Positions 1-422 of a stretch of DNA of 558 nucleotides are shown in pieces (the stretch's first letter is position 1; every line of letters starts with the position of its first letter). The stretch is from Escherichia coli (GTDB taxonomy: Bacteria; Pseudomonadota; Gammaproteobacteria; Enterobacterales; Enterobacteriaceae): assembly GCF_003334255.1 (NCBI RefSeq), contig NZ_QOWU01000223.1; one strand, written 5' to 3'. The position numbers and the translations under genes are program-made. The notes beneath the pieces are model-generated. The model saw nothing but the letters and a program-made list of their open reading frames with translations. It was not told the DNA's origin and made no database searches.

Positions 1-422
1 GCTGAAGCCATCATTAATGCAACATCATCCTCGCTGACATCCACCACATCTGCAGAAGGTGAAATATCGCCCCCTCCCTCCCCACCGAACCGGACGCCTC
101 CGGCAAGTCCTGCCGCTTTCTGCATCAGCATGTCTTCCTCATCCGGCATCTCCGTCTGCGCTTCCTCTCGCCGGGGAGCCAGCAGACTGAAATCCGAGGG
201 ATGCATATCCGGATCGCAAAAAAACAGGCTGAGTACGGCGTACATCAGCCCGGAAAAATGCATATCCAGTTGGGTATCCTGAAAATAATGCGTGCGGTAA
301 AAATGTCGCCAGTCGGCATATTCGGTGGATGTCATCCCGGCAAGCATGGCGCGCCAGTCAGGCCTCCCCATCTCACGCGCCAGTCTGAGGGCAAAATTCA
401 GCTCGCCGTCGAAAACTTTCCC
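1..422 (-). CDS. T: Phage tail assembly protein T-like domain, made as the -1 frame extension of G (G-T fusion by ribosomal slippage); 3' end lies beyond the left edge
   Basis: The minus-strand frame that is -1 relative to G is open from 431 down to position 1 with no stop (about 140 codons after the slip site). Upstream of 431 it is closed by several stops (plus-strand TCA/TTA at 432, 435, 438, 450, 474), so it cannot be translated independently from further upstream. Hand translation from the slip site: GKVFDGELNFALRLAREMGRPDWRAMLAGMTSTEYADWRHFYRTHYFQDTQLDMHFSGLMYAVLSLFFCDPDMHPSDFSLLAPRREEAQTEMPDEEDMLMQKAAGLAGGVRFGGEGGDISPSADVVDVSEDDVALMMAS... This closely parallels the lambda gpT portion of gpGT as I recall it (REMGRPDWRAMLAGM, DMHFSGL, LSLFF-DPDMHP-DFSLL, MQKAAGLAGGVRFG). 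First in-frame ATG is at 371..369; automated annotation may call an independent T CDS from there. Confidence 0.85.

Follow-up and report, generated by a model that had tools for sequence, protein, structure and literature searches.

Which genes does this stretch of Escherichia coli DNA carry, how are they expressed, and to which phage do they belong? The window, by which is meant the whole stretch of 558 nt that was analysed, had been interpreted from its letters alone as encoding a gpT-like domain of a diverged lambdoid phage or prophage. It is almost certainly part of the G/T tail-assembly chaperone locus of a lambda-like temperate E. coli phage or prophage, lying on the minus strand, an assignment carried by sequence identity, family membership, gene order, a conserved slippery site and constraint on the -1 reading frame; nothing in the sequence speaks against it. 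As such it counts among the ordinary lambda G/G-T tail chaperones, already known and annotated in public records. The two matters that the locus raises beyond its identity are whether T is made as a fusion to G or as a protein in its own right, and what the variable C-terminal tail of T consists of.

Layout and family membership

The minus strand is the coding strand, and all long sensible reading frames lie on it (Table 1). In the G frame the window translates as WPADAIARAEEVVLRLSGMSGAVHADTDSTEVAKNNALTDDDFSAGKFSTAS, followed by the stop codon, and this end of G matches the G CDS annotated in PV340545.1 and NZ_CP058571.1 without a difference. Relative to the G frame the heptamer is in X XXY YYZ phase, and the G stop comes six codons later. 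At the frameshift site the T domain lacks a start codon of its own; its frame, followed from the final G of the heptamer to the end of the window (VFDGELNF...ALMMAS), reads VFDGELNFALRLAREMGRPDWRAMLAGMTSTEYADWRHFYRTHYFQDTQLDMHFSGLMYAVLSLFFCDPDMHPSDFSLLAPRREEAQTEMPDEEDMLMQKAAGLAGGVRFGGEGGGDISPSADVVDVSEDDVALMMAS, and it runs 43 nt past window position 1. The interval 1-422, singled out in the sequence-only reading as gpT-like, corresponds exactly to the T part together with the slippery site.

Table 1. Features of the 558-nt window, with the evidence for each.
Feature	Positions	Strand	Extent	Evidence
3' end of gene G (tail assembly chaperone G)	398-556	-	last 52 codons, WPADAIARAEEVV...SAGKFSTAS, plus TGA stop at 400-398	translation
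Slippery heptamer G GGA AAG	416-422	-		same heptamer, phase and position as lambda
T domain, -1 frame	3-416	-	138 of 152 codons, VFDGELNFALRLAREMGRPDW...EDDVALMMAS	matches to TIGR01715, PF06223 and phrog_32165
Conserved N-terminal part of T	180-416	-	T residues 1-79, to DFSLL	84% identity to lambda (81-residue GK...DFSLL); 77% of columns invariant
Repeat copy 1, T tail	87-152	-	T residues 89-110, EMPDEEDMLMQKAAGLAGGVRF	self-alignment; DNA repeat at 111-nt spacing
Repeat copy 2, first half	3-41	-	T residues 126-138, DVSEDDVALMMAS	self-alignment; DNA repeat
Open frame antisense to G/T, probably not a gene	201-488	+	95 aa	

The G and T domains of the window clearly belong to the lambda G and T families. 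The family tests for G used the full gene of the identical record, of which the window itself holds the last 52 codons; full-length G scored 158.9 bits against TIGR01674 (cut-off 74.45) and matched PF06894 over residues 1-121 with an E-value of 7.8e-48. The T domain scored 200.9 bits against TIGR01715 (cut-off 77.35), covering positions 1-110 of 111, and matched PF06223 (E 1.1e-12) and phrog_39 (E 4.1e-53). When joined as a G-T fusion of 290 aa, the two domains matched phrog_32165, the PHROG family of full-length fusions, from end to end (1-290/290, E 4.9e-166), and TIGR01674 and TIGR01715, both NCBIfam equivalogs, were both above their cut-offs in the fusion. When the T domain was searched against a protein database, it returned only matches named 'phage tail assembly protein T', labelled E. 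coli, Salmonella, Citrobacter or Cronobacter with the exception of one match (P0042), which is labelled Enterococcus durans.

A search of solved structures for relatives of T found none, the best E-value being 0.41, and an AlphaFold2 prediction of the T domain from a 33-sequence alignment gave an unusable model (mean pLDDT 42, pTM 0.28); the N-terminal part of T may be helical, as a low-confidence model predicts. Rfam returned a single chance-level match, to a model of a vertebrate lncRNA, which scored 19 bits where the gathering score is 50, and promoter, terminator and tandem-repeat scans of the window found nothing.

Probable frameshift fusion of G and T

Public pipelines still call T as a free-standing protein of 137 aa from an internal ATG instead of as part of a G-T fusion. 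In GenBank and RefSeq it is a separate CDS (MGRPDW...), placed at 6188-6601 in both the PhiR5_1 locus and the locus of the EC2 prophage, and the fusion is unannotated. If these annotations of PhiR5_1 and of E. coli genomes were taken at face value, T would be an independent gene read from its own ATG and the heptamer would be incidental, but the DNA on the upstream side of that ATG argues otherwise. In the PhiR5_1 locus the -1 frame is open for 152 codons from the heptamer, the full length of T, and the protein sequence is conserved over the 15 codons that separate the slippery site from the first in-frame ATG. These codons encode VFDGELNFALRLARE, against VFDGELSFALKLARE in the lambda type; VFDGELNFALRLARE is found in 27 of the 30 distinct DNA versions of this stretch, and the variable nucleotide columns within it are distributed 0/3/5 over the three codon positions. 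For the first 79 codons of T the corresponding distributions are 7/8/19 for differences from lambda and 10/12/30 for variable columns across relatives. The -1 frame is under coding constraint, and this constraint on the protein already holds before any start codon has been reached. Read-through from G is the only explanation for it; a free-standing T would not predict it.

The slippery site itself was surveyed in 83 loci, comprising 80 viral contigs fetched with the fusion together with lambda, PhiR5_1 and EC2, and GGGAAAG was present at the same place, and in the same phase, in 83/83. RNA structure 3' of the slippery site was not significant (z -1.8; 13/200 shuffles fold as well). The lambda G/T frameshift is not known to need a downstream RNA structure either. 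Given the invariance of the heptamer, the match from end to end with a fusion family of 290 positions, and the fact that the lambda product is a fusion (PMC5009743), a T that is independent of G is very improbable. The G/T frameshift cassette is conserved exactly across the common allele group, and the window is placed firmly in the tail module of a lambda-like E. coli prophage.

The distribution of substitutions also bears on the 95-aa frame of the plus strand. An open stretch of 105-116 aa is kept at this place in 75 of the 78 related loci tested, as might be expected of a real antisense gene, but the first codon position of that frame falls on the third codon position of T, the one at which variable sites cluster, so that changes would mostly alter the antisense protein. 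The frame has no PHROG match at E <= 1 and no promoter-like site, and it is unannotated in the records seen. That it is a real gene is extremely improbable; it was rejected as a candidate on the grounds that substitutions follow the minus-strand frames and that no PHROG family matches it.

Divergence from phage lambda

The organization of the window is that of lambda. The lambda gpG/gpGT region (NC_001416 9711-10549) shares with it the two domains, the G GGA AAG heptamer in the same phase and six codons before the G stop, the flanking codons GCG GGA AAG, the position between V and H, the overlap of T with the start of H, and the two-copy repeat in the T tail. The same genes, the same heptamer and the same flanking codons are what phage lambda itself or a laboratory lambda derivative would present, but the degree of divergence leaves no room for such an origin. 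At the nucleotide level the window agrees with NC_001416 in 402 of 537 aligned columns (74.9%), with 21 gap columns, and the best local alignment is 79.4% identical over 408 nt; the GT fusion, at 290 aa against 279 in lambda, has only 196/279 residues identical, and exact matches to the window lie in other records.

Within T the divergence is unevenly spread. The domain as a whole is identical to lambda at 109 of 146 residues (75%), the part from the frameshift site to DFSLL at 68 of 81 (84%), and the part from APRREE to the end of the window at 34 of 55 (62%), with four gap columns. The neighbouring proteins U (79%), V (67%), G (66%), H (79%) and M (80%) diverge from lambda about equally, so G/T is no unusual island within what is, over the whole tail module, a diverged lambdoid allele. 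The window-type G is three residues longer than that of lambda, and the window-type T is eight residues longer, four of them in the acidic linker and four at the C-terminus (VPAGW, where lambda has G). The overlap of T with H is 20 nt in the window type and 8 nt in lambda. The 20-nt overlap (6582-6601 of the PhiR5_1 locus, just beyond window position 1) was observed in 75 loci of the allele group, and its extra length codes for the VPAGW end of T.

These comparisons bear out the view, reached from the letters alone, that the T domain is lambdoid and yet distinct from lambda, the nucleotide identity being 75-79% and membership of the lambda G/T families being established. Two outcomes had been named as fatal to that view, a near-identical match to lambda and a lack of similarity to lambdoid tail genes; no near-identical lambda match was found, and the similarity to lambdoid tail genes is clear. 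The suggestion that T follows lambda more closely in its N-terminal part than in its C-terminal part likewise agrees with the 84% and 62% identities.

Matching phage, prophages and distribution

Megablast against phage records matched the window over 558/558 nt to Escherichia phage PhiR5_1 (PV340545.1, 35651-36208), where the matching genes are labelled 'tail component protein G' and 'tail component protein T'; the literature search found no paper on this phage. The next-best phage records were PhiR12_2_star, at 96.2%, and then about 35 listed Stx2a-converting phages at 93.7%. Matches of 100% were also found to prophages in six complete E. coli chromosomes (EC2, DETEC-S792, S1-KEN-03-A, S1-KEN-04-A, 99RCEF and JNEC-KY204), and these, like PhiR5_1, show no difference from the window over 558/558 nt. 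The products annotated at the identical copies are tail assembly chaperone G and tail assembly protein T. The Stx2a/Stx1a-converting lambdoid phages (e.g. LC727840) belong to the same allele group, at 93.7% nucleotide identity over the whole window; the LC727840-type match spans 549 nt against 558 in the window, a net length difference of 9 nt. Of 5426 complete E. coli genomes, 1926 contained copies related to the window; these stood at 4543 places, almost all of them on chromosomes. To judge from these genomes, the window allele belongs to a group that is very common among E. coli prophages.

The gene order around the match, in PhiR5_1 and in the EC2 prophage, is portal (B), C/Nu3, D, E, FI, FII, Z, U, V, G, T, H, M, L, K, I, J, which is the order of lambda. 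In both loci G/T lies between the major tail protein gene V and the tape measure gene H, outside the window, with V ending 21 nt before G and H starting 20 nt before the T stop. The earlier proposal of an enterobacterial lambdoid phage or prophage as the source is thus confirmed, both by the 100% identity to PhiR5_1 and six E. coli prophages and by the lambda gene order. The PhiR5_1 and EC2 sequences are 99.88% identical to each other as far as ~130 nt beyond the window. There, within the 5' part of H, they differ by an indel of ~50 nt (6692-6741 in the PhiR5_1 locus, L001, versus 6690 in the EC2 locus, L002), after which identity is 95.95%, and this break looks like a mosaic joint. In PhiR5_1, H is annotated as two pieces, at 6582-8915 and 8915-9154 in locus coordinates.

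One alternative is that the window derives from a decayed cryptic prophage in which G/T no longer functions. Signs of decay do occur among its relatives: T is cut to 92 aa in one viral contig (L004) and G is out of phase near the slippery site in another (L005), tail assembly gene I carries a frameshift in the EC2 prophage, and the H of PhiR5_1 is annotated in two pieces. The disruptions in L004 and L005 reflect either decayed prophages or sequencing errors. In the window, by contrast, both frames are intact, and its sequence is identical to that of a phage record which lists E. coli C as propagation host. Decay is decidedly unlikely on this evidence, and it would alter the state of the element only and not the identity of the genes, which remain those of a lambda-like G/T locus.

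Proposed function

In lambda, low-level -1 frameshifting sets the ratio of G to GT at about 30:1 (PMC5009743). According to reviews that cite Xu, Hendrix and Duda, the binding partner of G is the tape measure protein H and that of T is the major tail protein V (PMC5009743, PMC4493119), and neither gpG nor gpGT is found in the lambda virion (PMC5009743, PMC4493119). Frameshifting at the window locus, its rate and the binding partners of its products are modelled here on these lambda findings. By this analogy most ribosomes translating G would stop at the TGA (400-398) and yield a gpG of 143 aa, while a few percent would slip back one base on G GGA AAG (422-416) and go on in the -1 frame, yielding gpGT. 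The G part would coat the tape measure protein H, and the T domain would recruit the major tail protein V, such that the tail tube would polymerise round H. Neither chaperone, gpG or gpGT, would be expected to remain in the virion.

The C-terminal tail of T

Among 36 distinct T sequences the mean column entropy was 0.40 in the C-terminal part versus 0.11 in the N-terminal part, and invariant columns made up 42% and 77%, respectively. In the 154-residue string of GK plus T, all 12-residue segments with an entropy below 2.5 bits fell within residues 86-146, and the lowest value, 1.95 bits, was reached at GGVRFGGEGGGD. The sequence-only reading had described this part of T as more variable and of low complexity, with an acidic stretch followed by a Gly-rich one. 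The low complexity is real, and the description is upheld as to overall variability, by the entropies of 0.40 and 0.11 and the lambda identities of 62% and 84%, but it does not extend to GLAGGVRF, which is identical to lambda and is the most conserved element of the tail. The acidic stretch that had been quoted is present (EEAQTEMPDEEDM, at 167-129). The Gly-rich stretch is also present, at 110-66, but it reads GLAGGVRFGGEGGGD, one G of GGEGGGD being missing from the peptide as quoted.

Conservation and variability alternate along the tail. MLMQKAAGLAGGVRF is invariant in the 36 T sequences, lambda included, as is LM..S.GI.GGVRY, and the variable parts are the acidic linker that precedes MLMQKAAGLAGGVRF and the GGEGGGDISPSADVVDV stretch that follows it. 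GLAGGVRF, nearly invariant across relatives, belongs to the first copy of a two-copy repeat, formed by EMPDEEDMLMQKAAGLAGGVRF and DVSEDDVALMMASAGISGGVRY, which lie 37 residues (111 nt) apart and in frame. The elements of each unit are an acidic stretch, a short segment rich in Leu and Met, and the motif G[LI]xGGVR[FY]. The acidic and then Gly-rich stretch of the earlier description is therefore repeat copy 1 plus a variable spacer. The window boundary cuts through the middle of copy 2, whose GISGGVRY motif lies just beyond the window and was read from the PhiR5_1 locus (L001, 6559-6601). In the coordinates of the same locus the two copies occupy 6407-6472 and 6518-6583.

The repeat is well supported at both the protein and the DNA level. 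Self-alignment of the T tail scored 50 here and 60 in lambda, against 19 +/- 4 for shuffles, 0/2000 of which reached the observed score. In the DNA the repeat is detectable over 47 nt at 70% identity in lambda and over 20 nt at 75% in PhiR5_1, both at the 111-nt spacing. Two copies of the motif were found in 72 of 120 database relatives of T, 64 of these 72 with the 37-residue spacing. The remaining relatives are mostly partial or frameshifted entries, with a few apparent true one-copy forms (P0119 and P0108). In four entries (P0119, P0108, P0097 and P0104) there is a single repeat copy, or part of the segment between the copies is missing, which may be real or an assembly artefact. Unequal recombination between the repeat copies would be expected to produce one-copy or shortened tails of this kind.

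The T profiles of Pfam, TIGRFAM and phrog_39 end after copy 1, and the second copy is therefore undescribed there. No mention of the GGVRF/GGVRY motif or of the T-tail repeat was found in the literature searched; key lambda papers lay outside this search, and the repeat may already be described in them. One speculative idea is that the tail is a bivalent module instead of a featureless linker, each copy docking one V subunit, with the copy number (two in most relatives, one in rare variants) and the spacers tuning the recruitment of V to the tape measure. We regard this as unlikely.

Co-variation of the T tail with its neighbours

The sequence-only reading had also suggested checking whether the C-terminal segment of T co-varies with the downstream tape measure protein, which implies the tape measure as the partner of T. 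This does not fit the partners given in the reviews cited above, namely V for T and H for G (PMC5009743, PMC4493119). For 60 loci, most of which are close relatives, matrices of pairwise distances were computed for segments of V, G, T (T-N and T-C) and H and compared with one another. The distances of T-C were correlated at 0.40 with those of H 1-130, at 0.18 with H 131-400, at 0.46 with V-N, and at 0.60-0.65 with G and T-N; when the lambda-type locus was left out of the set, all correlations fell in the range 0.07-0.33. The suggested check thus gave no specific signal between T tail and tape measure, and no privileged one, in these 60 closely related loci, a set of low power and hence a weak test. 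The correlations simply weaken with distance along a mosaic genome. Across the same 60 loci the most variable segment of V-G-T-H was the last 96 residues of V, with a mean pairwise distance of 0.25 versus 0.03-0.15 elsewhere. These residues probably correspond to the Ig-like domain of lambda gpV.
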